24,213 nt of DNA from Candidatus Eiseniibacteriota bacterium. Its GTDB lineage: Bacteria > Arandabacterota > Arandabacteria > Arandabacterales > Arandabacteraceae. Under the pieces are notes generated by a model. The model worked only from the letters and a program-made list of their open reading frames with translations. It was not told where the DNA came from and made no database searches. Shown piece after piece: positions 3,652 through 23,467 of this stretch. Each line of letters opens with the position of its first letter. Position 1 is the stretch's first letter. A program made the translations under genes and the position numbers. The stretch spans positions 1-24,213 of the forward strand of contig JBDRNT010000157.1 of assembly GCA_043810925.1 (NCBI GenBank), read 5' to 3'.

Positions 3652-3780
3652 TGGGGTCAGGCTTTGAAATCTGGAATCAGGTCTGACCCCGTTATTCGAA
3701 AGGGGCCGCTATTTAGCGGCCCCTCTTCTATTTCAGGCTTTTCACCTCAATCTGATTCCAGATTTCAAAGCCTGACCCCA
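3652..3780. repeat. REP-like repeat family A, copies 2 and 3, forming a perfect 29 bp inverted repeat
   Basis: 3652-3680 TGGGGTCAGGCTTTGAAATCTGGAATCAG is the reverse complement of 3752-3780. An extra CTGACCCC at 3683-3690 can also pair with copy 2. Confidence 0.9.
3701..3724. terminator. Probable bidirectional intrinsic terminator between convergent genes
   Basis: AGGGGCCGCT-ATTT-AGCGGCCCCT with A-rich 5' and T-rich 3' flanks. Confidence 0.7.
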
Positions 3781-3785
3781 GCCCT

Positions 3786-4400: not shown

Positions 4401-4414
4401 CCTGATCCCCCTTC

Positions 4415-5806
4415 TCAGAGTTGTATGACTTTGCCTTCCATATCCTTCGGCACGTCGATTCCCATCACATCGAGCACCGTCGGTGCCACATCGTATATTT
4501 CAAGATTCTCCAGTTTCTTGCCGCGCTTGACCTTCGGATCCCACAGGACAAAGATTCCGTGTTCGGCATGCACGGCGTCATCCGGGCCGACTTCGGTCTC
4601 AAAGGAGTGGATCGAGTCGTGCCCGATTGTACCGGTCGATCGCCAGTAAAGATCACCGAAATAGACGATCAGGTCGGGTGCCTGGTCCAGGTTGGGTCCC
4701 GTATATGCCTCCTGGGGTTTGATCACCCGGGTCCCGATGTTCTTGCCGTTTTCATCCGTGATGCTTCTAAGCCTCTCGGCTATCTCGTCCCTGACCTTCT
4801 CGTAATCGGCGGGATCGATCGCACCCTGCTTCTCGCGGCCTTTGACATTGAGGAAAAGCCGGCAATAGTAGCCGCCCAGGCCCCATGCCTTTGTCTTTTC
4901 CCAATCGATGTCGGCCTTTTCGAGTTTGACCAGGCCTTCGGGCCTGGACTTAAGCGTCATCAGGCCTTCCTGGATCAGCCAGTCGTTGACGTTGATCGCA
5001 CCCTCCATCTTCTTCGCCCCGTGGTCGGATACGACCAGGACGGTCGTGTCCTCATCGAGGACTTCAAGCAGGTCGCCGATCCGCTTGTCGAGGTACTTGT
5101 GGTACTCAAGAATGGCGTTTTCATACTTGTTACCGGCCTCGTACTTGCGGTGGGTCTTGTCGAAGAACTTCCAGAAACCATGGTGTATCCTGTCGAGCCC
5201 TATCTCGACGAACATGAAGAAGTGCCACGGCTCGTTCGTGAGGAAATACTTAACGAGATCAAAGCGTTTCTCGGTCATCTCATAGATTTCCGCCAGAAGC
5301 TCGTCCTTGTTCTCGGTCCGGAACTTCTCACAGTCGAGCATGTAATCTCCGACCGCCAGTTTGACTTCATCCTTGATGTACTCGGGAAACGTGTAGTCGG
5401 AGTTGGTGTCCGGCGCCAGCCAGTCGGTTACCATGAAGCCGTTGACCGGTCTCGGTGGATACGTCTGGGGTACACCGACCATGCCCACCTTGTAACCTTC
5501 ACGCCCGACAACATCCCAGAGTGTCGGTTCCTTTATGGCAGTGGAGTTGGCAATCCAGAAGTTGTCATACGAGTATTCGCTGCGGTTTCTGAAGCCGAAG
5601 ATACCCAGCTGTCCCGGGTTCTTGCTTGTAACCATGCACTGCCAGGCGGGTATTGTGATCGGTGGTATCGTGCTCTTGAGCGGTCCCCAGACCCCACCAT
5701 CGACCATACGCTTGATGTTGGGGAGCTCGTCGAGCCACTTGTCGAAAACCAGATCGGGTGCCGCACAATCCAGCCCGATTATAAGTACTTTCCTCTTCGG
5801 TCCCAT
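4415..5806 (-). CDS. AlkP-superfamily COG3379-like protein, paralogue 2
   Basis: IIGLDC, STIPPITIPAW, GLDRIHH, SDHG, DDAVH, DVAPTVL. Lies between sat and cysC with short spacers. Confidence 0.9.
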   Translation of the reverse strand: MGPKRKVLIIGLDCAAPDLVFDKWLDELPNIKRMVDGGVWGPLKSTIPPITIPAWQCMVTSKNPGQLGIFGFRNRSEYSYDNFWIANSTAIKEPTLWDVVGREGYKVGMVGVPQTYPPRPVNGFMVTDWLAPDTNSDYTFPEYIKDEVKLAVGDYMLDCEKFRTENKDELLAEIYEMTEKRFDLVKYFLTNEPWHFFMFVEIGLDRIHHGFWKFFDKTHRKYEAGNKYENAILEYHKYLDKRIGDLLEVLDEDTTVLVVSDHGAKKMEGAINVNDWLIQEGLMTLKSRPEGLVKLEKADIDWEKTKAWGLGGYYCRLFLNVKGREKQGAIDPADYEKVRDEIAERLRSITDENGKNIGTRVIKPQEAYTGPNLDQAPDLIVYFGDLYWRSTGTIGHDSIHSFETEVGPDDAVHAEHGIFVLWDPKVKRGKKLENLEIYDVAPTVLDVMGIDVPKDMEGKVIQL

Positions 5807-5825
5807 TCACCTCTCCTTGCTGCGA

Positions 5826-6977
5826 CTACTCGATAAAGGGATTGTCGAAATCTTTCTGAGCCTGGAACACCTCAGGTCGTATCATCTCCGGCGGGGGCGT
5901 ACCGCCCTCTACCAGCAGCTTCCTCACGATGGTTCCAGAGAACTTCATCTTGACATCATCACCGTGGGGACAGGTGCGCTCACTTTCAAGCCGCGCGCAG
6001 GTCTTGCAGTAGAAGAAGTCACCTCGTAGGGTGATAGGGCGAATATCAAGATCATCGAGCTCATCGAAGATCTCGATCGCCGCCTCGGGAGCGTAATAAT
6101 TGCCGACGCCGGCGTGGTCTCTTCCGACTATAAGGTGCGTGCAGCCATGATTCTTCCTGATTATGGCATGATGCACGGCTTCCCGCGGACCGGCGTATCT
6201 CATCTCCATGGGTAGGATGGTCAGGGCGACACGGTCCTCGGGGAAATAGTTCTTGATCAGAGCGTCATAGCACTTGAGAATCACGGCGTCCTTGAAATCT
6301 CCCTTTTTCTTCTTGCCTATGACGGGATGGATAAGGAGGCCGTCAACCAGTGCGAGGACGGTCTTCTGCATGTTCTCGTGGCCCAGATGGGGCGCGTTTC
6401 TTGTCTGGAAAGCGGCAACCGTCTTCCAACCCTTCTTCTCGAAGAGCTCGCGTGTCTCGGACGGATAGAGGTTGTACTCCGGAAACGGTTCACGTGAGGT
6501 GTCAATGAGGTCGAGATCTCCGCCGAGGAAGACATCTTTCATCTCCATTTTAGACGCAACGCCGGGGTGGGCCGGGTCGTCGGTCCCGAACACGGCCTTG
6601 GCGATCTTCTCCTTGGGATAAGAATACTTCTCCTTGAGATGAAGAATCGCGACCGGGGTGCCGTCCTCACTCTTGAGGCATACATCTTCGCCCTCGGTGA
6701 GACCCCCCGCTTCCTCCTCGGAGGCATCAAGGAGTATCGGTATAGTCCAGACGGTCCCGTTCGCAAGCCGCATGTTCTCAAGGATAGGCTTGAGATCGTT
6801 CTGGCATATGAAACCCTCAAGCGGGCTATACCTTCCGTGGCAGATGTTCTTAACATCGGTCACACTTTCCTTATCGATCGTTATGCTCTTCATACCGGCA
6901 ACTGCCGCCAGAGCGTTTTCGAGGTCTTTGCCCGTGAGGGACCTGTCTATGAGCTTGCCACCATGCGGTTTGACCAT
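5826..6977 (-). CDS. sat: Sulfate adenylyltransferase (ATP sulfurylase, Sat/Met3 type)
   Basis: PHGGKL, YSPLEGF, FQTRNAPHLGH, MRYAGPREA, GRDHAG and a Zn site CxxC...CPH. RBS GGAGGT favours ATG at 6977 over GTG at 7037. Confidence 0.96.
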   Translation of the reverse strand: MVKPHGGKLIDRSLTGKDLENALAAVAGMKSITIDKESVTDVKNICHGRYSPLEGFICQNDLKPILENMRLANGTVWTIPILLDASEEEAGGLTEGEDVCLKSEDGTPVAILHLKEKYSYPKEKIAKAVFGTDDPAHPGVASKMEMKDVFLGGDLDLIDTSREPFPEYNLYPSETRELFEKKGWKTVAAFQTRNAPHLGHENMQKTVLALVDGLLIHPVIGKKKKGDFKDAVILKCYDALIKNYFPEDRVALTILPMEMRYAGPREAVHHAIIRKNHGCTHLIVGRDHAGVGNYYAPEAAIEIFDELDDLDIRPITLRGDFFYCKTCARLESERTCPHGDDVKMKFSGTIVRKLLVEGGTPPPEMIRPEVFQAQKDFDNPFIE

Positions 6978-7051
6978 GACTGTGACTACCTCCTGTTCCT
7001 GTTCTTCTGGGAATACTCTCTTCTGGTCTATCGGCACAGGTATACCCAGTC

Positions 7052-7080
7052 ATTATACCCACTTAAGTCGAGTTCCGCAA
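7052..7080 (-). promoter_or_regulatory. Sigma70-type promoter for the sat-AlkP-cysC operon
   Basis: Minus strand TTGCGG (7080-7075), 17 nt, TATAAT (7057-7052). Confidence 0.65.
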
Positions 7081-7386
7081 CACAATTAGGCCATGTGTGT
7101 CCGGGCTCGGCGAGTGATGGCGGTTGCCGAACTGGGCTAATAGACCCAGCCGGTCGGAGGATTGACCCATATCCGGCCGGGAAGGGGGCCCCGGAAAACG
7201 GTGCCCGCAGCCAAGCGGGACTATTTCTTTTGGGTTCAACACGTTGTCACTTACGGTGCCGGGACCGGCAGGCGGTGCGCGTGGCACGGAACCTGCTTAT
7301 CTAAGGTAATTGGTAATTCAGACAGACGCCCCGCCGGAGTCTGGTTTGGTTGACTGGCCCTCGCCGATACCCTAAGGAAATGTACC

Positions 7387-7779
7387 ATGCGCTTGATTGT
7401 TGCCGCTGTGCTCGTACTGATCTTCGCTCTGAGCGGATGTGCCCACAGGGCCGTCAGTATGAGCAACCTCTTGGGTAGGGAAGAGGTTGAAGCGTCCTAT
7501 CTTCTGGTTGGTGGCGCATGGGTCCCTGAAGACAGCCTCTCCTGGTCGGACAGGTCCTGGTACAGGGAACTTCGCTTCGATACGGATGGGAATGGCAGGT
7601 GGAACTATCTCTACGCCGAAGTCTACGACGACGTTGCAGGCTGGACCTGGATCCCCTCGAGTGCACGCGTAAACCCCGAGGAGGAACCGGATCTGGCCCG
7701 GACCAAACGATACCTCGTTAGAGATAGGGACACCCCGCCTCGCCAGCCGAGCCTCGACGATTTCGGATACAACGATTAG
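7387..7779 (+). CDS. Hypothetical lipoprotein
   Basis: AAGGA RBS, hydrophobic signal with lipobox LSGC, and a DTDGNG Ca-binding-like loop. Confidence 0.7.
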   Translation: MRLIVAAVLVLIFALSGCAHRAVSMSNLLGREEVEASYLLVGGAWVPEDSLSWSDRSWYRELRFDTDGNGRWNYLYAEVYDDVAGWTWIPSSARVNPEEEPDLARTKRYLVRDRDTPPRQPSLDDFGYND

Positions 7780-7811
7780 TAGTGCCCTGCAGTGAAGAGA
7801 ATCTGTGCCAG

Positions 7812-7835
7812 CGGGAACCCCTCACGGGGTTCCCG
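7812..7835. terminator. Hairpin between convergent genes (probable terminator)
   Basis: CGGGAACCCC-TCAC-GGGGTTCCCG, a perfect 10 bp stem followed by ATTATTTT. Confidence 0.65.
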
Positions 7836-7837
7836 GA

Positions 7838-9301
7838 TTATTTTAAGCCCGGGCTGTTCACAATCCCCAGATTTTGCCGGATGATATCGAAGACCGAGGA
7901 AATGTGTGGCCGGGTGTCCGCCGGAGCCGAAGCAGCCCTGTAAAGCATGAGGGTCCCGTACTTGGAGTGACCGCCGGAGACCTTCTTGTGGGTGGCACTG
8001 ATTCCGAAGGTCCCGCAGAAGACTGTGCGGTCGACACCATACTCCTCGCGGAGATCGAAGATGACATCGGGATACTTCTCGATGTTCCGGCCAGTGAAAA
8101 CCTCTTCCCGCCGCTTCACCCAGGCGGCGACCGTCGAACCGCTTTCGTCAACCACCGACCGGACGAGACCGATCAGACGATCCCGCAAGGTTTCATAGGC
8201 CTTCGGATCTGTCGAAAGGAGTGCTCTATTGATATCGATGCCGCCAAAAGAGGTGCCGCCTCCCACTTCCGAGACCCATGCGGTGCTCGCGTGCCTGTCC
8301 ACTGCATACGATGATGATTTGAGTTGCTTCCTCTTATCCTTGGGAATCAATGATGCAATCCGGTAGACCTGGTCTTCGAGATCGAGCCGTTGCATGATTC
8401 TTAAGAAAGCGTTCTTGGTCTTCTCAACGAGGGCCACCGGATTGATGCCGGGTACACCGCCGCTGCGTGTCTTGAGCAGGCCTTCTTTGCGGAGGATCTC
8501 ATTTACGTAGAGTGCCTTGACCGGTCTTCTCCCGTGGCCGTGGTCGCTTACGATGAGGAGTGCCTGCTCGGGTGAGAGGCGGTCAATGAAATCACCGACC
8601 ACGGAGTCGAACATGCGGAAGAAGTCCTTTATGGACGTCTCGAGAGGATTGCGCCCCGGGTAAGTCGGGTCGTCCGGATCCGTGTAGCGCCAGAGGAAAT
8701 GCATGACCCGGTCGAGCGTAAGGAAGCAAAGGAAGAAGACATCCCACTCCTCTATCGCCATAAGCTCCAGACCGAACCTCGCCTGGTCGCGCGTGACCTG
8801 CTCGGTCCTCTCAAGGAAGCCTGCCAGGTCCTTCTTGCCGGGGAAATCCGCCATCCCGCCGAGTTCCGGAATATCGAACTTGTCCATGATCTCAGACGGA
8901 TGAGACTGGGCTTCACCCGTTATGAAAACAGGCCCGTTTACCATGATCCCGTTGACCGGCCAGACAGGATAGGCAAGCAGGGGGTTTATCACGCAGACCC
9001 GCTTTCCTGCCGCACTTGCGACGTCCCAGAAGGTCTTGCCGATCAGTATCCCGGTGTCAAGGGCGCGGGTACCGCCTCTTATATCCAGGTAGTCCATGGA
9101 GTCCACGACGCCATGCTGCCAGGGCTGCATCCCGGTGTAGATCGTCACCCAGGCGGGAATGGAATCGGGCGGCATCGTAGATTCAAGCGGTGCCGAGTAG
9201 CCTTCGTCCATTATCTTCCGGAAGTTCGGAAGATCGTCTTTCCACCTCTCAAGCAGAACCGGGTCCAGTGCGTCTATTCCGAGTACCACAATCTTGCTCA
9301 A
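7838..9301 (-). CDS. AlkP-superfamily COG3379-like protein, paralogue 3
   Basis: VLGIDA, STMPPDSIPAW..IYTG, TLDRVMH, SDHG, SGGH. TTG start overlaps the upstream TGA stop. Confidence 0.9.
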   Translation of the reverse strand: MSKIVVLGIDALDPVLLERWKDDLPNFRKIMDEGYSAPLESTMPPDSIPAWVTIYTGMQPWQHGVVDSMDYLDIRGGTRALDTGILIGKTFWDVASAAGKRVCVINPLLAYPVWPVNGIMVNGPVFITGEAQSHPSEIMDKFDIPELGGMADFPGKKDLAGFLERTEQVTRDQARFGLELMAIEEWDVFFLCFLTLDRVMHFLWRYTDPDDPTYPGRNPLETSIKDFFRMFDSVVGDFIDRLSPEQALLIVSDHGHGRRPVKALYVNEILRKEGLLKTRSGGVPGINPVALVEKTKNAFLRIMQRLDLEDQVYRIASLIPKDKRKQLKSSSYAVDRHASTAWVSEVGGGTSFGGIDINRALLSTDPKAYETLRDRLIGLVRSVVDESGSTVAAWVKRREEVFTGRNIEKYPDVIFDLREEYGVDRTVFCGTFGISATHKKVSGGHSKYGTLMLYRAASAPADTRPHISSVFDIIRQNLGIVNSPGLK

Positions 9302-9981
9302 TGTAACACTCCCTCGATCTCCCTCGTCAGCCTCGAGTTTACTTGTTCAATGCTTTCCGTACCATCGATTCTCACCGCCCCCACTGCCTCTGCTACCCGG
9401 TCGTAAAGCCCGTGCCGCTCCCTAAGATACTGGATGGAAGGGATGTCGTCTTTTCGCTGCATGGCCTCCTCGGGTGAGATCTCAATCAGTATGACCTTCT
9501 CAGGCTGCGGAAACAACCTGAGAAGGGGAGAGGTGAGCAGCCGGTCGAGCTCGGTTCCGTCTCCCCCGAAGGCGGAATCTATGTCGATGAACGTGTCATA
9601 GACATACCTGTCGAGCACGATCACACGCGTACTCCTGGCGAGTTTCGAGAACGCGACCCTGGCGCTCAAGTAAAGATCTATGACGGTGAGAGTCCGCCAG
9701 ATGGTCCGGAGCAGCCTGTTCTTAAAGAGAGACTGCTTGGAGCTTACATACTTGTCATAGTCTCCGCCCGCGTGGACTCCGTCACCTCGCTTGGTCTCCC
9801 TCGGGGCGCGGAGCAGAGCCTTGCCTATTTTCAGGATCGGGAGCGTCAGGTAGGACTCACCTCGCATCCACACGACCTCGGCGGGTGTGCCCTGTGCAGT
9901 CAGCCATCTGGAGAGAAGCTCTGCCTGGGTCGTTTTACCGCTTCCGTCAAGACCCATGAAGACTACGAGTTGTCGTTTCAT
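9298..9981 (-). CDS. Thymidylate-kinase-like P-loop NMP kinase
   Basis: FMGLDGSGKTTQA, VLDRYVYD, PEEAMQRK. ATGA overlap with the GT4 stop puts the start at 9981. Confidence 0.8.
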   Translation of the reverse strand: MKRQLVVFMGLDGSGKTTQAELLSRWLTAQGTPAEVVWMRGESYLTLPILKIGKALLRAPRETKRGDGVHAGGDYDKYVSSKQSLFKNRLLRTIWRTLTVIDLYLSARVAFSKLARSTRVIVLDRYVYDTFIDIDSAFGGDGTELDRLLTSPLLRLFPQPEKVILIEISPEEAMQRKDDIPSIQYLRERHGLYDRVAEAVGAVRIDGTESIEQVNSRLTREIEGVLH

Positions 9982-11030
9982 GCAATCTCCGACTCTATGG
10001 TTTTGATAACGGTGTCGGCGACCTTGTCCCACCCGAGACCGAGCACGAGCTGCCTTGTCGACACACCTTCGACACCGAGCGCCTCCCGTGTCCTGTCCGC
10101 AAGCTCGGCCTCAGAGGAGCATATGTAGAGTCCTTTGCCATCACGGAAGAGATCCGGGATCCCGCCAAAGCCGGTTGTCACGACCGGTAGATTCGTGGCC
10201 ATCGCCTCGAGCACGGAAAGAGGGATCTCAATGGCCCCCATCTCTGCGAATGTGGGGAACACGTAAGCATCGGCAAGTCTGAAGATCTCATCTATATTCT
10301 CTATGTACCTGCCGATGACCACGATTGAGCCATCCTTCAGCTCCTGTGCGATCGCGGTATCCTGTTCGGTGCTCGTGCTCGAAACGATCACGAGCTTCCA
10401 CCCGTCCGCAACTGTGCGCTTGAGCAGCCCGAGGTTTCGTCTGGCCGATAAGTGGCCCACATGGAGAAGCACCCTGCCGTCACCGATCCCGTATTTCTCC
10501 CGGAGCGCTGCTTTCTCCCCGGCAGCCGGCGGTCTGAAGGTACCGGTATCCACGCCGAGGGGCACACGCCGCGCCTTTATCCCGGCCTCCTCCAGGATAG
10601 CTACGGTCCCGGATGAGAGGGCGAGGGTAAGATCCGGTGCCAGCGATCTTAAGAACGGCCGGACAAGCGGCGAGTACGTTCGACGCTGAAGCGACAACAT
10701 GACAACCGGTATCCCGCCGCCCAGCCTACGAAGACAACTGGTACGGATAAGACTCATCGGTGTTGCCGCTGACTGCGGTATATAAAGAATCACATCAGGC
10801 TTACTGTTCCTCAGATTCCGCGAGAATGACGAGCCGGTAAGGAGCTTGTTGAGGGGAAGCGGCTCGGTGGGAACCGGTAGGCCGGGAGCATCAGGTGTGA
10901 ATACGGTAACCTCGCTGCCGAGCCCTGAGAGCGCAGTGGCAAGCGCCACGGACGCTTTCTTGAAGCCCTCGTCTAGAGGCGGGGAGAGGTTCTCACTTAC
11001 GACTGCTATTCGTCTTGAGCATACAACCAC
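9978..11030 (-). CDS. Glycosyltransferase family 4 (GT-B)
   Basis: VPLGVDTGTFRP, LLHVGHL, ADAYVFP...EIPLSVLEAMATNLPVV (E-x7-E-like motif). Confidence 0.9.
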   Translation of the reverse strand: MVVCSRRIAVVSENLSPPLDEGFKKASVALATALSGLGSEVTVFTPDAPGLPVPTEPLPLNKLLTGSSFSRNLRNSKPDVILYIPQSAATPMSLIRTSCLRRLGGGIPVVMLSLQRRTYSPLVRPFLRSLAPDLTLALSSGTVAILEEAGIKARRVPLGVDTGTFRPPAAGEKAALREKYGIGDGRVLLHVGHLSARRNLGLLKRTVADGWKLVIVSSTSTEQDTAIAQELKDGSIVVIGRYIENIDEIFRLADAYVFPTFAEMGAIEIPLSVLEAMATNLPVVTTGFGGIPDLFRDGKGLYICSSEAELADRTREALGVEGVSTRQLVLGLGWDKVADTVIKTIESEIA

Positions 11031-11056
11031 CTGGACTTACCCCCAATGTATGGTAC

Positions 11057-11085
11057 ATTCTATTTCGCCCCGGGGCTGCGGTCAA
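11057..11085 (-). promoter_or_regulatory. Sigma70-type promoter for the GT4-kinase-AlkP operon
   Basis: Minus strand TTGACC (11085-11080), 17 nt, TAGAAT (11062-11057). Confidence 0.65.
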
Positions 11086-11188
11086 CGAATTAAGCCGGCG
11101 TGAGAAACCCCCGGGGAAACCGCTGGGGCCCATTGGGGTCACGGTCTTTAATTGTTGCGTCGTCGCTCCTCAGGCGACGGCCTTTGAA

Positions 11189-11210
11189 ACGTCGGGCAGG
11201 AGACCCGACG
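11189..11210. repeat. Palindromic REP-like repeat family B, copy 1
   Basis: ACGTCGGGCAGGAGACCCGACG; its reverse complement is near-identical to 12093-12115. Confidence 0.65.
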
Positions 11211-11266
11211 CATCCGGGGTCGTCGCAGGTGGAACCCCGACGCGTGGTTGCCGTGAGGATTGCAGC

Positions 11267-12085
11267 GTGCCTGCAGGCAAAGCCTACTTAAGCCGGATGT
11301 GCATAACGTCGGTTACGCCGACGGTCTGCAACCTGATGGGGATCCCCCCACCAGCGCTCTCGACGGGGGACGTTCTCGGTCGGGTCGTTGAGACCGCGAG
11401 AGGCGAAGGCGTCGCAAAGGTCGACAAGTGTCTTATCTACGCGCCCGATGCCATAGGGAGCCGGATCTGCCGCGACTATGAAACTAGATTCAAAGAGGTG
11501 ATGAGACATGCTCCGATCAGGGTACCGCTGCGTTCGGTGTTTCCTCCGAAGACCCCTGTCTGCTTCGCGTCCATGTTCACAGGCGCCATGCCGAAACGCC
11601 ACGGCATCATCAAGTATGACAAGCGGGTGTTGGCATGTGACACCATCTTTGATGCGTTTGCCCGGGAGCGGAAGGCCACCGCGATCGTGGCGGTCAGGGA
11701 TTCGAGCATCGACCGGATCTTCCGGGACCGGGTGATCGACTATTTCTCTGAAGCCTACGACAGGCAAGTTACCGACCGCACGCTTGATCTTATCAAGGCA
11801 GGTGAGCACGATCTCGTCGTCGCCTACCACCAGCAGTACGATGATGTCCTGCATGAGACCGGACCTCGTTCCGGGGAAGCACTCGAGGCGCTTGAAAACC
11901 ACATCGCCGGTTTCCTCGACATGGCTCAAGCGGTCGAATCATACTGGGCCGCCCACAACCGGATGATAGCATTCGCCCCGGATCACGGGGCGCACATGGA
12001 TCCCGCGACCGGCAGAGGAACGCACGGTGACGACATAGCGGAGGATATGGAGGTCGATCATTTCTACGGTATTGCGCCGGCGTAA
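11267..12085 (+). CDS. Compact AlkP-superfamily phosphodiesterase-like protein
   Basis: LIYAPDAIG, SVFPPKTPVCFASMFTG..P..HGI, YDDVLH, PDHG, GTHG. Start is uncertain (GTG 11267 after GAGGA, or ATG 11297). The ORF-track extension to 11015 overlaps a promoter and repeats. Confidence 0.8.
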   Translation: MPAGKAYLSRMCITSVTPTVCNLMGIPPPALSTGDVLGRVVETARGEGVAKVDKCLIYAPDAIGSRICRDYETRFKEVMRHAPIRVPLRSVFPPKTPVCFASMFTGAMPKRHGIIKYDKRVLACDTIFDAFARERKATAIVAVRDSSIDRIFRDRVIDYFSEAYDRQVTDRTLDLIKAGEHDLVVAYHQQYDDVLHETGPRSGEALEALENHIAGFLDMAQAVESYWAAHNRMIAFAPDHGAHMDPATGRGTHGDDIAEDMEVDHFYGIAPA

Positions 12086-15487: not shown

Positions 15488-16561
15488 ATGAATTTGAGTG
15501 ATCTGGGATGGGATTCGTTCTTCGAAGAACATCTCACGCAAAATAAGAAAGACGGTTTTGCCCCCGCCAGGATAGCGCGCGAGGACAGGCAGGCGTATCT
15601 AGCTTACAGCGAGTACGGTGAGCTTATTGCCAGAGTATCGGGTAAGATGCGTCACAGCGCGCGTTCACGTGCGGACTTCCCTGCGGTCGGCGACTGGGTG
15701 GTGATAGAGCCGCGGCCCGGCGAAGCCAGAGCGACAATCCATGCGGTGCTTCCGCGGAAGAGTAAATTCTGTCGCAAAGTCGCGTGGGTGAAGACCGAGG
15801 AGCAGGTACTCGCATCAAACGTCGATACCGTCTTCCTTGTTAACGGTCTCGACCTTGATTTCAACCTGAGACGGCTCGAGCGCTATCTTACGCTGGCCTG
15901 GGAGAGCGGGGCGCAACCGGTCGTTGTGCTCAACAAGGCTGACCTGTGTTCGGATGTCGAGTCGCAGGTGGGCGAGGCCGAGTCGGTCGCATTCGGCGTA
16001 CCGGTCCATGCCGTCAGCGCACTCGAGCTCGATGGGCTTGATGCCCTCCGCGGTTATGTCGGTACCGGTACGACCGTGGCCCTTCTGGGTTCTTCAGGTG
16101 TGGGCAAGTCGACCCTGATAAACAGCTTTCTGGGGACCGATCTTCTCAAGGTTGGTGCAGTCCGTGAGGATGACTCACGCGGCCGGCATATTACGACGTC
16201 ACGCCAGCTGGTCGTAATTCCCGGCGGGGGAGTGATCATCGATACCCCGGGGATGCGGGAACTCCAGCTCTGGGTGGATGAGAAGAGCCTGGGAGGGAGT
16301 TTCGAGGACATCGAGGAACTCGCGGCAGAGTGCCGGTTCAGTGATTGCCGGCACCAGACCGAGCCCGGATGTGCGGTCAAAGCGGCCATCGAAGCCGGCA
16401 GTCTGGATGCCGGTCGATACCGGAGTTATGTCAAACTCCAGAAGGAAATCAAGTTCCTGGCAATCCGAAAGGACCAGAGGGCGCGCTTGGACGAAAAGAC
16501 CAAGTGGAAACAGATTGCTAAATGGTCGAGACAAAGGGAGAAGCACAAGGATAAGAGCTAG
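15488..16561 (+). CDS. rsgA: Ribosome small subunit-dependent GTPase A (circularly permuted GTPase)
   Basis: PAVGDWV OB-fold, NKAD (G4), GSSGVGKS (G1), GRHITT, DTPG (G3), CRFSDCRHQTEPGC Zn finger. RBS AGGAGG. Confidence 0.95.
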   Translation: MNLSDLGWDSFFEEHLTQNKKDGFAPARIAREDRQAYLAYSEYGELIARVSGKMRHSARSRADFPAVGDWVVIEPRPGEARATIHAVLPRKSKFCRKVAWVKTEEQVLASNVDTVFLVNGLDLDFNLRRLERYLTLAWESGAQPVVVLNKADLCSDVESQVGEAESVAFGVPVHAVSALELDGLDALRGYVGTGTTVALLGSSGVGKSTLINSFLGTDLLKVGAVREDDSRGRHITTSRQLVVIPGGGVIIDTPGMRELQLWVDEKSLGGSFEDIEELAAECRFSDCRHQTEPGCAVKAAIEAGSLDAGRYRSYVKLQKEIKFLAIRKDQRARLDEKTKWKQIAKWSRQREKHKDKS

Positions 16562-16573
16562 CAACAGCGAAAA

Positions 16574-16731
16574 CCCCAGGGGCCAAAACCCCTGGGGTCA
16601 GAGCTAAAAAGTTACACACCCCCGGGGTCAGAGCTAAAAGTGTGACACTTCAGGGGGTCAGACCCCAGGATGTCAGCTTTTTAGCTCTGACCCCAAGCGA
16701 GTCACTCTTTTAGCTCTGACCCCACCCTGGG
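16574..16731. repeat. Palindromic cluster of GGGGTCAGAGCTAAAA REP-like units
   Basis: Direct copies 16594-16609 and 16624-16639, inverted copies 16679-16694 and 16708-16723, central GGGGTCAGACCCC at 16654-16666. Confidence 0.9.
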
Positions 16732-16802
16732 ATGCCGCTTTTTTGTTGATTTCTTGTTGACGCATATTAGTGGCGGTGATAGCCTGCGGACGGAGAGCTG
16801 AC

Positions 16803-17924
16803 ATGCCAAAGACAGCCAGGACTCTTAAGCCCAAAAAGAGATGCTGGACAGTCCTTGCCTACATTGCCGCCGACAACAATCTGAGCGATGCGGGTCTTGT
16901 CGACGTGCGGGAGCTCTGTGCCGTCGGTACATCTAAGGACGTGTATGCCGGAGTCGAGATCGACACCTACGGCGAGTACACGGGCTCGATTCGCTACGAG
17001 ATAACCGAGCCCGACTGGACGGGTGAAGCCCACCGTACTGTTATCCAGCGTCTCAAGGAGAAAGATACGGGGGATCCGCGGACGCTCCAGAGTTTCGTCA
17101 AATGGGGACTCAGGCGGTACCCGGCAGACAATTACCTATTCGTCATTTGGAATCATGGTGCAGGCTTTCGCTCGATACGGAGAGATATCGGCTACGATGA
17201 CTTCGGATCATCACTTGATATGCCCGAAATCGAGATCGCCTTCAGGAAGGCGGGGATCAACAGCGACAACAAGATTGCGATACTCGGGTTTGACGCCTGC
17301 CTCATGAACATGATCGAGATAGCCCACCATTTCCAGGACCAGGTAGATATCCTGGTCGGATCCCAGCAGACCGAGCCCGGAGACGGCTGGCCCTATGACA
17401 AGGTGCTGGAGGCTGTCAACAAATCCCCCACCCGGATCAACATGGCGAAGGAGATCGTCGACGTCTACATCGAGGACTACCTCAAGATGGGAATGGTCGA
17501 CGTCACCCAGTCGGCCGTCAAGATCAGCACCACCGAAACGGCAATCAGCGCGCTGAGCGATCTCGGTTATCTGCTTGCCGCCCGGACCGTCGAGTACCGC
17601 ACGGAGCTCAAGCGCATCAGGCTTGAGCTCCAGACATTCGAGATGGCCGACTATGTCGATCTCATTCACCTGGCGGGGCGTCTCGGTAAGCACATCCATG
17701 ACAATCGAATAAAGGCCGCAAGCGAGGCCGTCGCAGAAACAACCCGTGCCTGCATACTGACTTCACGCAAAACGGGCCAATCCGTCCGCAACGCCAATGG
17801 GCTGTCGGTGTGGTTCCCGGCAGTGGGACGTCTCTACTACGATTACCGCGGCAAGTATGTAGCACTCAGGTTCGCGAGACACAACAAGGGCTGGATCCGC
17901 TTTCTCGATGCCTATCATTCTTGA
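16803..17924 (+). CDS. Clostripain-related cysteine peptidase (family C11, clan CD)
   Basis: WTVLAYIAADNNL, YPADNY..IWNHGAG (catalytic His), GFDACLM (catalytic Cys), EPGDGWPY, GLSVWFP. No obvious signal peptide. Confidence 0.92.
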   Translation: MPKTARTLKPKKRCWTVLAYIAADNNLSDAGLVDVRELCAVGTSKDVYAGVEIDTYGEYTGSIRYEITEPDWTGEAHRTVIQRLKEKDTGDPRTLQSFVKWGLRRYPADNYLFVIWNHGAGFRSIRRDIGYDDFGSSLDMPEIEIAFRKAGINSDNKIAILGFDACLMNMIEIAHHFQDQVDILVGSQQTEPGDGWPYDKVLEAVNKSPTRINMAKEIVDVYIEDYLKMGMVDVTQSAVKISTTETAISALSDLGYLLAARTVEYRTELKRIRLELQTFEMADYVDLIHLAGRLGKHIHDNRIKAASEAVAETTRACILTSRKTGQSVRNANGLSVWFPAVGRLYYDYRGKYVALRFARHNKGWIRFLDAYHS

Positions 17925-18014
17925 TCCGGACATATCTATAATGGCAATGTACGCCATACTCAATTCTCCGGTGAGACTTAAGATGGCACCGGCCGTCACG
18001 GTAGGAGGAATACG

Positions 18015-19181
18015 ATGAGAGTTCCCAGACTCGGCAAGTCAGCGTTAGTGGTCGTCCTTATGGTTACGGTCATGGTGGTTGTTGTTTGTGGCTGCAGACC
18101 TTTTCGGCCGCTCAGGGCGAGCCGCGAGCCGGTCCCGGAACCGGCCCCGATCCCGGCTTCACCCGCGAGATCATCCTACGTGAAGCCTGAGGTCGCGCTT
18201 GTGGAGGTCGCCAGTTCCGACAGGCTCTGGACCGGTGTGGCGGTATCGAAAGATGGACGGATCTTTGTCAACTACCCGCGCTGGTCGGACGACGTTACGT
18301 TTTCGGTGGGGGAGATACGTGCATCGGGCAAAGTCGTCCCGTTTCCGGATGAGGACTGGAACGCCTGGGATGGTTCCCAGGAACCCGGTGATCATTTCGT
18401 GTGTGTCCAGAGTGTCTATGTCGATGACAAAGACTTCCTCTGGATTCTCGATCCTGCGAGTCCCATGCTGGGCGCGGTGGTACCCGGCGGGCCCAAGCTC
18501 CTCAAGGTCGATCTGGGTAAGAACAAGGTCGTGCAGGAAATAGGCTTTGACGAGACCGTTGCCCCGGCAGCCAGCTATCTCAACGACGTAAGGGTAGACA
18601 CCGGTAAGAACGTTGCCTATATCACCGACTCCGGACTCGGAGCACTCGTCATTGTCGATCTTAAGACGGCCAAAGCCAGACGGCTGCTCGGCGATCATCC
18701 GTCCACAAAGGCAGAGGCAGTGGTGCTTACGATCGGCGGCAAGGAATGGCGAATGGGTGGTAACGCCCCCGAGGTTCATTCCGACGGGCTGGCCTTAAGT
18801 AACGACGGCACGTATCTATACTACCAGGCCCTTACTGCAAGAACCCTCTACCGGGTCGAAACCCGCTGGCTTCTCGATCCATCGCTCTCCGGGGTTCAGC
18901 TCGGGGCAAAGGTTGAATCGATGGGCCAGACCGGGGCCGCCGACGGGATCGAGTTCGGTCCGGACCACTATCTCTATCTCACTGCGATTGAGGATAACGC
19001 AATCAAGACGTTTGCGGCACTCGACAGGGCCGAGACGGTCGTAAGGGACCCACGGCTCCTCTGGCCCGACAGTTTTGCACGGGGTGGCGACGGGTATATG
19101 TATGTCACGACTTCACATATCCATCTCGGCGCCGACGTAAGCGAACCCTACCGGATATTTAAATTCAAACCGGCGAGATAA
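18015..19181 (+). CDS. Major royal jelly protein/yellow family beta-propeller, probable lipoprotein
   Basis: TGVAVS.DGRIFVNYPRW, VQSV..D...LWILD, SYLNDVRVD, AYITDSG, SDGLALS, LWPDSF. Lipobox VCGC; RBS AGGAGG. Confidence 0.9.
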   Translation: MRVPRLGKSALVVVLMVTVMVVVVCGCRPFRPLRASREPVPEPAPIPASPARSSYVKPEVALVEVASSDRLWTGVAVSKDGRIFVNYPRWSDDVTFSVGEIRASGKVVPFPDEDWNAWDGSQEPGDHFVCVQSVYVDDKDFLWILDPASPMLGAVVPGGPKLLKVDLGKNKVVQEIGFDETVAPAASYLNDVRVDTGKNVAYITDSGLGALVIVDLKTAKARRLLGDHPSTKAEAVVLTIGGKEWRMGGNAPEVHSDGLALSNDGTYLYYQALTARTLYRVETRWLLDPSLSGVQLGAKVESMGQTGAADGIEFGPDHYLYLTAIEDNAIKTFAALDRAETVVRDPRLLWPDSFARGGDGYMYVTTSHIHLGADVSEPYRIFKFKPAR

Positions 19182-19193
19182 GGAGGCGGTGTC

Positions 19194-20270
19194 ATGAAAA
19201 GATCTGGGTGTATCACGGACCTGATCCGGCGATGTGTCGTTTCTGGTTGTTGCCTGGCCCTTCTGATCGTAGCAGCCGTATCTCCTGTAGCAGGGGAGGA
19301 GACTGAGCCTGTTCAGGAGACCGACGAGGAGTACGAGCAGGTTCTTGCAGAGAACCCGGAGTATAAGACCCAGCTTGAAGAGGTTGACAATATTCTGGCC
19401 GGTGATGAGGAGCTCGAGGAGAGCTACCTCGCCTATCAGGAATCTCTTGTGGACGACCGGGAGCTGGCGGTCGAGGAGAGTACGTTCTTTGAAGTCCTCG
19501 AAGCAGACACCGTTCTCGCGGAACGGCTGGCTGAGTTTGAGGGGATAGCTGCTGAGGATTCTGAAGCCGTTATCGAGCTGGCTGTGATGGACAGCGTGCT
19601 TGCCGCCGATCCCGAACTCGCCGGCAAGATGGAGGAACTGGAAGCGGCCGCCGCGGAAGACCCCGAACTTCTGGAGACTCACGGGGAAGCGATGGCATAT
19701 CTCGAGGCGCACCCTGAGGAGGCCGGGGATCTCTTCGCCGCCGAGGACGGTCCGACCTATGATGGTGATGACCCCGAAGTCGTGCTCTATGTCACCTACC
19801 TCGCCGGTCATCCGCGTCTATACCGGGCCCATTGGAGTCTCTACCGTTACCTGAAGGCCCGGCCGGCGGCTGCCCAGGTGGTCTATGGCCACTGGAAGTG
19901 GTACCACCCGCGCCGGAACCTCTGGAAGGCATCATGGCGTTACCGCATGTGGGCGGCGCGGCATCCGAAGACTCACAGGATCATCTGGAACCGGCGTCGC
20001 TATCTCGGCGGCCGGCCGGGTCTTTCGAGAAGGATCCGGCGCCATCGTTTCGTTGTGGCGCGCCGGCCTGCTGTACGCCACATTCTGACACGGCACCACG
20101 TTTTTGTCGCCCGGCATCCCAAGCATGCACACGCGGTGGTCAATCACCGCAACTGGGTAAAGCGCAATCACCCGCCGCCCAAGGTCAAGGCAAGACCTGC
20201 GCCCAAACCTGTGCAAGAACGCAAGCCTGACCCCAAGGCGAAGCGCAAGCCGCCGCCGAAGCGACGTTGA
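19194..20270 (+). CDS. Hypothetical secreted 17-aa-repeat protein with acidic N-half and basic C-half
   Basis: RBS AAGGAGG, signal-like hydrophobic segment ending VAG, and a continuous 17-residue periodicity. Confidence 0.8.
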   Translation: MKRSGCITDLIRRCVVSGCCLALLIVAAVSPVAGEETEPVQETDEEYEQVLAENPEYKTQLEEVDNILAGDEELEESYLAYQESLVDDRELAVEESTFFEVLEADTVLAERLAEFEGIAAEDSEAVIELAVMDSVLAADPELAGKMEELEAAAAEDPELLETHGEAMAYLEAHPEEAGDLFAAEDGPTYDGDDPEVVLYVTYLAGHPRLYRAHWSLYRYLKARPAAAQVVYGHWKWYHPRRNLWKASWRYRMWAARHPKTHRIIWNRRRYLGGRPGLSRRIRRHRFVVARRPAVRHILTRHHVFVARHPKHAHAVVNHRNWVKRNHPPPKVKARPAPKPVQERKPDPKAKRKPPPKRR

Positions 20271-20311
20271 GTCTATTGACACCTGGACGGGGTGGTGCCG
20301 TAGTCCGGCCG

Positions 20312-23300
20312 CTACTGCCAGGCTCCGACGGCGATGAAGCCGGCCCAGAGATATGGATGGTCGGGCTTTCCCCTGGATCGCAAGGCGTCGATCGTCTCTT
20401 TCTGAGCGCGCCTGATCCTCTCGGCGATCGGAGCTTCTTCTCTCTCATAGAGCAGACCGGCCATCTCAGCTGTGGCCTCATCCGGTATCGGCCATAGCGC
20501 GCTTACTACCGTGCGGGCGCCCGCAAGTTGAAACGCACGCCGCAGACCATACACACCCTCACCTTCACGGACCTCACCCAGGCCCGTCTCGCAGGCCGAC
20601 AGGACAACCAGATCGGTCCCGTCAAGATCCAGCATGGCGACCTCGTATGCGGTGAGGATGCCGTCCTCCCCGGCCCGGCTCAGGTCATCGCCGCCGCGCG
20701 CGTTGGCGCCGGCAAGAAAAAGGCCCGAAAGAAGGAGCGGGTTCTCTCCGGTCACTCGCGGCCGCTGAGCAGATTCACCACCCATGACGGTCCGGGCGCA
20801 AGCCTTATTGAGGAAGTAACCATGCGTTGCAAGGTGAATCACCCGATGGTCGTGAGCTTCCGCCTTCAGTCTCGACTCGCTGGCATCACCTCTCGTGTAC
20901 ACCGTAGCAGGTTCGTCCGTGGACATATTCCAGAGATCTACGATCAGCCTGATCTCCTCCCTTGTTCCCGGCAGGGGCGGCACGGTCACCTCGCTAAGTG
21001 CTTCGCAGCCCGAGCGAACGCGCCGTGTCAGGCCTGCCACCGGCCCACCGGCGACACCCGGTTCTCCAGCCAGTTCGGTCACCTGCCCGGGGGAAACTGC
21101 ATCATAGTCGGGATCGCCAAAGACCAGCAGCCCTTGCCCCGACTCGACATCGGCTCCCAGGCGGAGCATATCTCTTGCGGACGTGAGGTAGTGAATCGCG
21201 AGATCCCCGGTGAGGTAGTCTCCGTCAGGGCCGATGAGACCCGCATAGGCAACCATATTGAGTGCTCCGTCGGGGGCAATAAAGACCATCTGATGACCTG
21301 TGGTGTACCCGGAGACCGGAGCCCAGATCATCTCCCAGAGGGCTTCGCCGATCTCCTTATACTCAGCAAGATCTATAGGAGTGGGTGGTACCGCGGCCCT
21401 GGAAACTCTCAACATATGCTCCCTGTAACGATTCACAAGACCGTCCACCTCTGGGGCCGACCCGATAGATACGATGACTGGATCAGTGCCGCTCTTCGCT
21501 ACGACTGCCATATACCTGGGCATGGATGTTCCCGCGATCGGATCGGCATGGTTGTATCTGAGATACTCCACAAGGCAGGCCCCTTCCGGCAACAATTCGA
21601 CAATGGACGCTGCCGTAACGTTCCGGTACTGTCTGTGCCTTCTGTAGCTCGCACTCCGCATCGCAAGCTCACTCTCAAGATCCGCAATCTCGTCTTCCAG
21701 TTCGTCTGAGGCCTGCCGGTAGGTTTCCAGGTCCTCACCGGGTCCTTCGATAAACATCCCTGCGAGCTGGAACCTTGAAAACCTGAGGGCCTCGGTGATG
21801 GTCGCGGTCGCACTATCGGCCTCTTCGACCATCGACCTGTTTCGCTCGAAGATGCCGTCGGACACCTGTCCCTTACATGACAGGACAATGTCGGCCGGGT
21901 TTGATGTCTTTGCTTTCTCCTCCCGAGCGAGTGAGTTATAGCAGGAAAGATAGTTGTCGAATGATCCCCGGAGAGAACCCGAATAGGTGAGGGCGTCAGC
22001 TTCAGAGAGGACAGTCGCATTCTCAGCAAGAGCCCGGTGTCTTATCCACACAGCCCGCTCGGCAAGATCCGTGGCTTCAAGCGGCCTGTTAAGAGCCCTT
22101 GCGATCACAGAAAGCCGTTCCAGGTTCTCCGCCACCGCAAAATGGTCTTCACCGAAAATCTCCTCAGCCATAACAAGACTCTTGCGGCAAAGTGTCTCAG
22201 CCTCGTCAAAGCGTTGCTCCTGGATTCTCAGTCTACCCAGATAGCCCAGTGTCCGTGCGATCTCATGTAGCTGCGGATCTTCCGCAGCCTGTCTGATTGC
22301 AAGAGCCCGCGTGTAAAGTGAATCCGCCTCGCGGTAGTCTCCTTGCTCGAGGGCGAGCCCGGCGATGTTCTCGAGGTCGGCCGCCACTCCGCTGTGGTTT
22401 CCCCCGAGCGTCCTGGTGTCGATAGCAAATGCCCTCTCAAGCACTGCTTTCGCTTCATCATATCGGCCCTCATCGACAAGGGCAGCTCCCAGGTTGCAGA
22501 GGCTCATCGCGACATCGGGATGGTCCGACCCTAACGAGCGCTCCCGGATCGCCAGCGCACGTTGATGCAATTCGCAGGACTCGGCCAGAATTCCCTGGCG
22601 GCCTGCCACGGACGCAAGATTGTCAAGACATCCTGCGATATCCGGGTGGTAGGGGCCGAGGAACATCTCCATGATTTCCATTGCTCGCCCAAACGCGAGC
22701 CTCGCTTTTACGTAGTCACCGAGCCATACCGACACGTTACCCAGGTTCAGAAGTATTGAAGCCACGATCGGATGCTCCGTGCCGAAGTTGGACTCGGCGA
22801 TCGTGAGAGCCGCGGCAAGGACCTGTTCAGCCTCGGCATACCTTCCGAGGTTCCCGTAGAGAACACCCAGGTTGACCAGGGTCTTTATGTTCTCCGGATG
22901 CGTGGGCCCGAGAGCCGCTTCTTTTATGGCCAGAGCATGCTTGAGCAAGTCTCCGGCCTCCCTGTAACGTCCGCCCGAGAGGTAGATACCTCCAAGACCG
23001 TGGTAGTAACGCGCGACCTCGAGATGGTCTGGGCCGTAGAGATCGGTCATGGCCGAAAGCCCCGTCACAATCTCTTCTTCTGCTTGATCGAGCCTGCCGC
23101 CATAGAGGTAGAGCGTTGCCAGATCATAGCGGTTCGAGGCGACATCAGGGCTCCCGGTTCCGAGCGCATCCAGTCGGATGTTGAGAGCCCTTGAGAGAAG
23201 CGACTCCGCCGTAGCGAAGTCACCCAGATCTGTGTACAGACTGCCCAGGGCGTTCAGGCTGATCGCAAGGTTCGGGTGGTCGGCGCCGTAAGCCTCTTCC

Positions 23301-23467
23301 GCAACCGAAGCACTAAGTTGATACAGGGATTCGGCGGGAGCATACTCTCCGACCGCCATGAGGGAATCAGCTTCGAAAACAAGATCTTCCCACTCTTCAG
23401 CATATCCCGAAGCAAGGCCCAGGACTGCACAGCATGCGAGCAGAGCGATGGGAATCCTCGCCGTCAT
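20312..23467 (-). CDS. TPR-repeat, CHAT-domain (caspase-like) protease with N-terminal signal peptide
   Basis: Ten ~42-aa kinesin-light-chain-type TPRs (HPxxAxxLxNL), IAPDGAL, LPGTREE, IHLATHG (His), VLSACETGLG (Cys), HPYLWAGF. RBS GGAGGTG. Confidence 0.93.
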   Translation of the reverse strand: MTARIPIALLACCAVLGLASGYAEEWEDLVFEADSLMAVGEYAPAESLYQLSASVAEEAYGADHPNLAISLNALGSLYTDLGDFATAESLLSRALNIRLDALGTGSPDVASNRYDLATLYLYGGRLDQAEEEIVTGLSAMTDLYGPDHLEVARYYHGLGGIYLSGGRYREAGDLLKHALAIKEAALGPTHPENIKTLVNLGVLYGNLGRYAEAEQVLAAALTIAESNFGTEHPIVASILLNLGNVSVWLGDYVKARLAFGRAMEIMEMFLGPYHPDIAGCLDNLASVAGRQGILAESCELHQRALAIRERSLGSDHPDVAMSLCNLGAALVDEGRYDEAKAVLERAFAIDTRTLGGNHSGVAADLENIAGLALEQGDYREADSLYTRALAIRQAAEDPQLHEIARTLGYLGRLRIQEQRFDEAETLCRKSLVMAEEIFGEDHFAVAENLERLSVIARALNRPLEATDLAERAVWIRHRALAENATVLSEADALTYSGSLRGSFDNYLSCYNSLAREEKAKTSNPADIVLSCKGQVSDGIFERNRSMVEEADSATATITEALRFSRFQLAGMFIEGPGEDLETYRQASDELEDEIADLESELAMRSASYRRHRQYRNVTAASIVELLPEGACLVEYLRYNHADPIAGTSMPRYMAVVAKSGTDPVIVSIGSAPEVDGLVNRYREHMLRVSRAAVPPTPIDLAEYKEIGEALWEMIWAPVSGYTTGHQMVFIAPDGALNMVAYAGLIGPDGDYLTGDLAIHYLTSARDMLRLGADVESGQGLLVFGDPDYDAVSPGQVTELAGEPGVAGGPVAGLTRRVRSGCEALSEVTVPPLPGTREEIRLIVDLWNMSTDEPATVYTRGDASESRLKAEAHDHRVIHLATHGYFLNKACARTVMGGESAQRPRVTGENPLLLSGLFLAGANARGGDDLSRAGEDGILTAYEVAMLDLDGTDLVVLSACETGLGEVREGEGVYGLRRAFQLAGARTVVSALWPIPDEATAEMAGLLYEREEAPIAERIRRAQKETIDALRSRGKPDHPYLWAGFIAVGAWQ

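Follow-up and report, generated by a model that had tools for sequence, protein, structure and literature searches.

In eosinophil pro-major basic protein and in the pro-defensins, an acidic propiece masks a cationic effector and is removed by proteolysis. A different form of neutralization within one chain is the charge-zipper model, which Walther et al. reportedly put forward in 2013 for TatA and TisB. There, acidic and basic ladders on antiparallel segments of one chain were proposed to neutralize each other, the segments being short, membrane-embedded parts of small proteins, with zippers that serve oligomer or pore assembly. For Tat, this model has been disputed (PMC5601993). In the present study, we analyzed a gene from Candidatus Eiseniibacteriota (assembly GCA_043810925.1, contig JBDRNT010000157.1), which lies at positions 19194..20270 on the + strand of a 24,213-nucleotide stretch of DNA, referred to below as the window. 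The coding sequence, supported by the list of open reading frames (ORFs), by homologue conservation and by codon differences, specifies a protein of 358 aa plus a stop codon (P0001), the first half of which is polyacidic and the second half polybasic.

P0001 shares features with both described systems. As in pro-major basic protein and the pro-defensins, to which it has no sequence or fold relation, an acidic N-terminal part precedes a basic part of similar size and opposite charge and the net charge is near zero; here, however, the two halves are conserved to the same degree and share one repeat unit. As in the model for TatA and TisB, antiparallel intramolecular pairing of complementary charge ladders is predicted here, and the charges co-vary. 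In contrast to those short segments, about 150 residues are predicted to pair with about 135 in what would be a soluble exported repeat protein, and the predicted pairing has a hydrophobic/aromatic spine. The mature protein has 324 aa and its sole hydrophobic segment is the signal peptide, such that it is not a small membrane-inserted protein. From the models described below, we consider it probable that P0001 is an exported, self-neutralizing helical hairpin made of one 17-residue helix-plus-turn unit, with a self-pairing fold at its core. Searches of the literature on charge zippers, repeat proteins and acidic propeptides revealed no description of such a protein. Nor did they reveal a counterpart to a repeat array that folds back onto its own charge-inverted copy, or to the co-variation of the halves charge for charge.

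One repeat unit in two charge states

The chain begins with a signal-peptide-like N-terminus (residues 1–34; 19194..19295, +) that contains four Lys/Arg residues, a hydrophobic stretch at residues 18–29 and then ...PVAG ahead of the acidic mature start, and whose predicted local distance difference test score (pLDDT) is below 50. This call relies on a simple rule, which asks for a positively charged N-terminus and, after it, a hydrophobic window of 12 aa, with the cleavage site placed by eye. Of the 18 family members considered below, 16 satisfy the rule. The earlier description of the protein as secreted, made from the sequence alone, should thus be retained as putative. The signal-like segment is followed by an acidic leader (residues 35–50) and eight acidic 17-aa units, together spanning residues 35–186 (19296..19751, +), with unit starts at 51, 68, 85, 102, 119, 136, 153 and 170. 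A 16-aa hinge at the predicted fold-back tip (residues 187–202; 19752..19799, +), recognized by its invariant columns and by the non-helical conformation predicted at 181–193, leads to seven basic aromatic 17-aa units (residues 203–325; 19800..20168, +) that start at 203, 220, 237, 254, 271, 288 and 305. The two arrays were delimited by register, autocorrelation and composition. The chain ends in a Lys/Pro-rich tail (residues 326–358; 20169..20267, +) with a net charge of +11, which is predicted to be disordered (pLDDT below 50 at 332–351). The eight acidic and seven basic units in exact 17-aa register, the hinge and the tail are all located where the sequence-only reading had placed them, and the acidic units begin with the heptads that it gave.

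The segregation of charge along the chain is extreme. Residues 43–186 contain 47 Asp/Glu and four Lys/Arg residues, while residues 201–325 contain no Asp or Glu, 32 Lys/Arg, 14 His and 18 Trp/Tyr/Phe residues, counts that agree with the basic units having been described as free of acidic residues and rich in Arg, His, Trp and Tyr. The computed isoelectric point is 4.05 for residues 35–192, 12.0 for residues 193–358 and 6.13 for the whole mature chain. With BLOSUM62-based autocorrelation, lags of 17, 34 and 51 gave z values of 3.7–6.8 in the acidic half and 6.1–7.0 in the basic half. The observed value was equalled by 0 of 2000 composition-preserving shuffles at each of these lags, and in neither half did any of 500 shuffles attain the observed maximum over lags 5–60. 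The proposed 17-aa period is, therefore, present in both halves far beyond chance.

To compare the two kinds of unit, the eight acidic and seven basic units were pooled by position across the 18 family members. The consensus is L-A-A-D-P-E-L-A-E-x-L-x-A-L-E-x-A for the acidic unit and L-A-R-H-P-R-L-A-R-A-V-W-R-H-R-R-Y for the basic unit. Positions 1, 7 and 11 are hydrophobic in both, and position 5 is Pro in 58% of the acidic and 70% of the basic units. Position 4 is Asp/Asn in acidic units vs. His/Arg in basic units, with about a third of the basic-unit histidines found at this position, immediately before the Pro. Positions 6, 9, 13 and 15 switch from Glu/Asp to Arg between the two. In the basic units, Trp at position 12 and an aromatic side chain at position 17 come in addition. 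The hydrophobic patterns of acidic and basic units correlate by position with r = 0.81 (the other 16 circular shifts giving 0.40 or less), and the percentage of Asp/Glu in acidic units correlates with that of Lys/Arg/His in basic units with r = 0.72 (0.35 or less in the other 16 shifts). Profile-profile alignment of the two halves yielded a single ungapped, in-register alignment of 113 columns (E 6.9e-5, probability 63%). The two halves are thus one unit with position-by-position charge inversion.

The reading frame was assessed by codon comparison between the window and four homologous loci, in which differences were highest at the third codon position in the acidic and basic halves alike. 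For example, differences at codon positions 1/2/3 numbered 34/19/69 in the acidic and 40/31/64 in the basic half for the locus L001, and 37/24/80 and 37/35/79, respectively, for L003. As this excess is found in both halves, the frame of 19194–20270 is right, and the alternative frames that are also open across the basic half, at 19832–20230 (+) and 19932–20282 (−), are by-products of composition. These open frames, and the fact that wrong frames of GC-rich DNA typically give Arg-rich products, are what could speak for an artefact in which a frameshift, an assembly chimera or a wrong-frame reading of GC-rich DNA has fused two unrelated halves. Against such a fusion stand not only the third-position excess but also the two-half architecture found in one frame in independent assemblies at 32–59% identity, the invariant Trp, Tyr, His and Pro residues that alignments of relatives reveal in the basic half, and a strong ribosome-binding site before the ATG, namely the Shine-Dalgarno-like AAGGAGG at 19180..19186 (+), read directly from the sequence 7 nt 5' of the start. 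Given the homologue architecture and the codon excess, the artefact was rejected and its probability is negligible. The argument of the sequence-only reading that the shared period speaks against a frameshift is, therefore, borne out, and homologues do not align in another frame after residue ~200, as the frame holds in both halves. Related to this, a 557-aa open frame at two metagenome loci (L008, 6729–8402; L010, 3260–4933) starts within the homologue's basic half, in a different frame, and extends into the next gene. As with the two alternative frames of the window, it is likely a by-product of GC-rich, Arg-codon-rich DNA.

Family-wide charge co-variation and the predicted hairpin

The search for homologues revealed a small family in which both halves are conserved in one frame. 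Six close relatives share 45–60% identity with P0001 and cover 80–95% of it, both halves included, and a profile search of 1.84 billion cluster representatives returned 40 proteins at E ≤ 0.001, of which 22 reach E ≤ 1e-10 and 15 reach E ≤ 1e-30. In the alignment of seven sequences, the hinge and its flank hold the most conserved non-repeat positions (F181, E184, G186, P187, Y189, G191, D193 and Y202). Across 18 sequences, P187 and Y202 are invariant and F181, G186 and D193 are at least 90% conserved.

In these 18 members, the N-terminal part carries a net charge between −10 and −49 and the C-terminal part, with the tail, one between +9 and +50, while the mature total stays between −8 and +6. 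The charges of the two parts correlate with r = −0.95 (n = 18). In 17 phylogenetic independent contrasts computed on a maximum-likelihood tree, r was −0.92 and the two charges changed with opposite sign in 14 of 17. Charge co-evolution between the two halves of one chain thus survives phylogenetic correction. The basic tail is present in 12 of 18 members; it is reduced to four residues in P0006 and P0007 and missing altogether in P0016, P0017, P0018 and P0021, and the N-terminal parts of these six members are correspondingly less acidic. The inner units are fixed in length in all 18 members (102–103 and 83–86 residues), with length variation limited to the two chain ends, which pair in the predicted hairpin. 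In P0013, P0015 and P0017, acidic units 1–2 are shortened to 22–26 of 34 residues, and these same three members have the shortest distal basic segments, of 15–26 residues vs. 32–38 in the other 15.

Short matches from the profile search (P0014, P0019, P0020, P0022–P0026, P0028, P0030 and P0033) look like fragments and were set aside. No fused or split forms were found among longer (631–2000 aa) or shorter (30–178 aa) proteins, both of which constitute weak evidence. Further away, P0029 (572 aa, with a signal peptide) carries repeats like FL-x-x-HPEIAEQLRKNP and reaches 65 bits on the Pfam family MHB through many weak stretches. P0044 has basic repeats of 13–14 residues (KWL-x-x-HP-x-x-AKK), and P0032, a distant relative (E 1.9e-6), shows no charge segregation but has a hinge-like motif and an Arg/Pro-rich tail. 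Together, these three proteins suggest a wider undescribed class of exported repeats of helices capped by His/Asn/Asp-Pro.

The structure of P0001 was predicted with AlphaFold2 from seven sequences, giving a mean pLDDT of 82.1, a predicted template modelling score (pTM) of 0.75 and 17 helices, essentially one per unit, with low scores limited to the signal peptide, the acidic leader and the Lys/Pro tail. The predicted helices span residues 45–53, 55–70, 72–87, 89–104, 106–119, 125–138, 140–153, 159–172 and 174–180 in the acidic half and residues 207–222, 224–255, 258–272, 275–289, 292–307 and 314–325 in the basic half. The ESM Atlas contains its own model of the identical sequence (pTM 0.70). 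For the least-charged member, P0016 (net −10/+9), AlphaFold2 with 18 sequences gave a pLDDT of 86.3 and a pTM of 0.81, with the helix pattern of P0001. The helical repeat anticipated earlier accordingly appears in the predicted models as an all-helical chain with one helix per 17-aa unit.

When the acidic (43–190) and basic (193–330) parts were submitted as two chains, the interface score ipSAE was 0.86, 0.87 and 0.87, as compared to 0.01 for the best of three controls. The runs predicted 336–348 contacts, shared at least 97% of them and placed the partner at a pLDDT of 88. In calibration, 116 of 157 solved complexes attained this score level, as did 2 of 215 mismatched pairs, a comparison which is only roughly valid here, as a custom alignment was supplied. 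As no like complex has been solved, the score is unlikely to reflect a structure memorized by the predictor. The lowest-error predicted contacts fall at i+j = 357–365 (F115–A246, L108–W253, I118–L243, L149–A212, A152–L209 and K145–L216), which predicts antiparallel helix-on-helix pairs of acidic 106–119 with basic 240–255 and of acidic 140–153 with basic 207–222. Applying the rule i+j ~ 361 to the helix boundaries would also pair 89–104 with 258–272, 72–87 with 275–289 and 55–70 with 292–307. For such helix-by-helix pairing, the acidic and basic halves must share one period, so that the rungs stay in register. In the best run, 32 of 48 Asp/Glu residues of the acidic chain touch the partner, as do 27 of 33 Lys/Arg, 13 of 15 His and all 19 Trp/Tyr/Phe residues of the basic chain. 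According to the models, a spine of Leu/Phe/Ile against Leu/Ala/Tyr/Trp would carry the pairing, with most Asp/Glu opposing Arg/Lys/His across it, and the acidic leader and Lys/Pro tail would emerge together as the two chain ends.

Of the arrangements that the sequence-only reading had offered, pairing of the halves in cis thus gains support from prediction (ipSAE and antiparallel contacts), from charge balance and from the paired shortening of the ends, and should be regarded as predicted. The same complementary surfaces can also pair in trans, with the acidic half of one molecule lying on the basic half of the next by domain swapping, to give dimers, filaments, an extracellular matrix or a condensate. 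Indeed, the halves are predicted to bind as separate chains, and pairing in trans needs charge balance just as much. As the monomer models are, however, already confident and compact (pTM 0.75 and 0.81) and the hinge is short and conserved, as for a tight turn, we consider such intermolecular pairing improbable.

Possible opening of the zipper and its alternatives

If the self-pairing fold is correct, the following course of events can be envisaged. The chain would fold back at the conserved hinge (residues 181–202, comprising the hinge at 187–202 and its acidic-side flank), and the eight acidic helices would pair antiparallel and one to one with the basic aromatic helices, residue i with about 361−i. 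This zipper would keep an Arg/Trp/His-rich polycation of 125 residues soluble and masked during export. Outside the cell, competing polyanionic surfaces, such as anionic lipid or lipopolysaccharide, extracellular DNA, a sulfated or acidic glycan or polyphosphate, could then displace the acidic half, and acid pH acting on the 15 His residues of the basic part might likewise open the zipper. Once open, the protein would have its basic half and tail free to bind. As to function, our leading guess, inferred and held tentatively, is thus a masked polycation that polyanions or acid pH would open.

A more far-reaching version of this idea, which we consider rather unlikely, is that a natural diblock repeat protein, whose helical zipper fold of two antiparallel rows has not been seen before, serves as an electrostatic latch. 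On this account, the latch would unzip at a polyanionic surface or at acid pH and free the 125-residue polycation and the Lys/Pro tail outside the cell. The freed part would attack the membranes of competitors, attach to glycans or extracellular DNA, or seed the formation of a matrix. The acidic half would be its intrinsic antidote and chaperone, co-evolving with it charge for charge.

The protein might instead be a permanently closed scaffold, a salt-bridged hairpin of high stability, with its function residing in the conserved tip (F181, E184, G186, P187, Y189, G191 and D193) or in anchoring of the Lys/Pro tail to an anionic envelope polymer. Several of the results are consistent with a structure that stays closed: the fold of the weakly charged member is predicted at equal or higher confidence, the most conserved non-repeat residues sit in the hinge, the predicted interface of 336–348 contacts is very large and all 18 members are close to neutral in their mature form. 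What such a scaffold leaves unexplained is the parallel escalation of charge to −49/+41 when −10/+9 suffices for the fold, and the tail, one of its two proposed functional parts, is missing in six of 18 members. We regard the closed scaffold as possible but doubtful.

A number of points weigh against a self-neutralizing hairpin that opens, and should be considered when referring to the interpretation above. All structural statements are predictions, and the training data of the three predictors are not mutually independent. The controls in complex prediction were unrelated proteins and not charge-matched helical ones, such that a generic attraction between any acidic and basic helix arrays is a possible source of the score. 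The higher confidence obtained for the weakly charged P0016 means that the fold does not depend on charge, and the data fit a stable structure that never opens no less well than a switch. The contrasts were computed on a tree from a quick search, several deep branches of which are weakly supported. The charge balance itself could stem from selection on the overall net charge, in favour of export or solubility, and not from direct pairing. The window shares no conserved neighbour with the other loci. As the least-charged P0016 folds with even higher predicted confidence, the fold would rest on the hydrophobic/aromatic spine. The charge ladder is an addition to it, amplified in step on the acidic and basic sides.

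Known families, neighbouring genes and distribution

The sequence-only reading had recognized no known family, and no curated cut-off was reached in Pfam, NCBIfam, PADLOC or PHROGs. For P0001, Pfam gave sub-threshold matches only (E values of 0.015 for MHB, 0.13 for Phage_scaffold, 0.26 for DUF7503 and 1.2 for Ntox1), and no Pfam family was matched by more than three of the 18 members. NCBIfam likewise gave only sub-threshold matches for P0001, PADLOC a single chance-level match to Cas12a (0.025) and PHROGs none. A phmmer search of P0001 against the sequences of solved structures returned two matches, with E values of 0.52 and 0.88. In structure comparison, Foldseek found no match in the PDB at E ≤ 0.001 (best E 0.17, template modelling (TM) score 0.10), and VIA-align against 48,161 representative solved chains gave a best Z of 5.1 for the P0001 model and 4.5 for the P0016 model, where the best Z for helical models is typically near 14 and values below 5 are at chance level. 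Structure neighbours in the ESM Atlas had TM scores of 0.32 or less, and its feature neighbours DUF3300, WXXGXW and DUF6600 were rejected, as their scores of 0.79–0.86 are at chance level. The missing structural match gives no proof of a new fold; from the models, the hairpin is a candidate new fold with no counterpart in sight.

As a helical repeat protein, P0001 appears to belong to a known kind, with a faint TPR-like signature that the earlier account had overlooked. Like TPR proteins, it is predicted to be all-helical with a 34-residue super-period of two 17-residue helices, and lag 34 gave the strongest autocorrelation in the acidic half. In addition, the pattern A-Y-x-x-S-L-x-x-x-P-E-L-A aligns without gaps with the TPR domain of O-GlcNAc transferase (1w3b_A). 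The family profile matches this chain with a whole-sequence E value of 2.4e-6 (independent E values of single stretches 0.042 and 2.2), in the acidic half and in the 34-residue register, and 13 of 16 weak profile-search matches scanned with Pfam are canonical TPR proteins. No Pfam TPR model was found at E ≤ 10 for P0001 or at E ≤ 1 in any of the 18 members, and no TPR chain is among the best 50 structural matches for the P0001 or P0016 model. Moreover, both helices of a pair are here one identical unit, charge is segregated along the chain and the chain is predicted to fold back on itself, in contrast to the open superhelix of TPR proteins. The signal in the acidic half may thus reflect remote ancestry or convergence on the helix-turn-helix pattern, not membership.

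The weak MHB match also raises the question of whether the protein could be hemophore-like, that is, a metal-binding periplasmic protein akin to mycobacterial MHB/Rv0203 that uses Tyr(i)/His(i+4) in Y-L-x-x-H-P motifs. Like these proteins, P0001 is putatively secreted, is based on small helices and carries a motif of this kind. Besides the Pfam match (E 0.015, residues 156–180), TIGR04529 matched weakly (E 0.015, residues 136–180), and the Rv0203 chain 3may_A, of 86 residues, matched the hinge region of the P0001 and P0016 models with 79 and 81 residues aligned, respectively. Heme binding by Rv0203 involves Tyr59, His63 and His89 (PMC9846915), and the pairs Y169/H173 and Y202/H206 of P0001, which also has 15 His residues in its C-terminal part, have the spacing of Tyr59/His63. 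However, the scores lie well below the cut-offs (15.9 bits vs. 27.4 for PF16525 and 16.1 vs. 32 for TIGR04529), MHB is matched at E ≤ 1 by only two of 18 members and the structural alignments (Z 4.8 and root-mean-square deviation 3.2 for the P0001 model, Z 4.2 and 3.6 for the P0016 model), with Z below 5, are within the chance range for helical models. H173 varies among the seven closest sequences, and H206 is neither invariant nor 90% conserved among the 18. The His at unit position 4 replaces the Asp found in acidic units just before the Pro and, for this reason, resembles a helix cap more than a metal ligand. P0001 is also four times larger than Rv0203. The hemophore-like reading is, in our view, very improbable. 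An MHB scan of the genome of the window gave no match but carries no weight, as control genomes likewise stayed below the cut-off.

The repeat gene is single-copy in its genome (3.85 Mb, 91.7% complete) and was not found in 17 other species genomes of the phylum (G001–G017; completeness 57–99%). Relatives are found at only four loci among 185,579 species genomes, labelled Zixibacteria, Gemmatimonadota, Eisenbacteria and unclassified bacterium, and a scan with the seven-sequence alignment added five loci from metagenome contigs. No relative was found in 72,556 plasmid records or in viral contigs. Absence from these 17 genomes, with the nearest relatives labelled as three other candidate phyla, points to lateral transfer or repeated loss. 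The local G+C content is 0.59–0.63 as compared to about 0.57, a slight rise for which Arg codons alone may account.

Just upstream, at 16770–19181 (+), lie a gene for a clostripain-family (C11) peptidase and then one for a major-royal-jelly-protein (MRJP)-like product. The latter gene ends 12 nt before the ATG, so that the peptidase, MRJP-like and repeat genes may be co-transcribed; its stop codon (19179–19181) shares its final two bases with the AAGGAGG motif. A promoter/terminator scan of 16400–20600 gave counts no higher than the shuffle expectation. Downstream, a gene at 20312–23467 (−) converges on the repeat gene, with its stop 41 nt away, and encodes a protein of 1051 aa in which nine TPR_12 stretches are combined with a CHAT domain at the C-terminus. 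The clostripain/MRJP-like arrangement was not seen at the loci of the relatives, and a Pfam scan of ten neighbouring ORFs of L001–L004, which covered only part of the neighbours, revealed no peptidase. In L001–L003, a secreted metallophosphoesterase is encoded downstream of the homologue, followed by a pullulanase and an amylase (Pfam), and the downstream arrangement in L007–L010 resembles this, as judged by ORF order and N-terminal sequence alone. A hybrid-cluster (Prismane) gene lies upstream in L002, the only locus in which it was scanned with Pfam, and in L007 and L009 by N-terminal likeness. The neighbourhoods of the window and of L004 differ from those of L001–L003. The L001–L003 metallophosphoesterase was not found in the genome of the window with the query used, and the Metallophos gene of the window is only 23% identical to it. 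Company with exported hydrolases is the sole theme common to the loci, on thin evidence.

Further away in the window, the region 1609–12085 encodes an ATP sulfurylase (5826–7037, −), an adenosine 5'-phosphosulfate (APS) kinase (3786–4400, −), a GT4 glycosyltransferase (9978–11030) and five genes in all of the type I phosphodiesterase/alkaline-phosphatase superfamily (PF01663), with good matches at 1609–2934, 4415–5806 and 7838–9301 and a weaker one at 11015–12085. Judged by these gene assignments, the region looks like a cluster that would make a sulfated or phosphorylated envelope glycan or lipid.

Rare and present in one copy, the repeat gene itself occurs patchily across candidate phyla, a distribution to be expected for a niche accessory function. 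Should the predicted structure hold, the protein would be a natural counterpart of designed repeat proteins, with charge-inverted halves that close helix by helix, and a candidate new fold, given a best Z of 5.1 among the representative solved chains for two confident models. A family that spans −10/+9 to −49/+41 on one scaffold provides a system in which electrostatics can be weighed against the hydrophobic spine in repeat-protein folding. For the bacteria that carry it, the hairpin, if true, would represent a possible new way to export and mask a large polycation.

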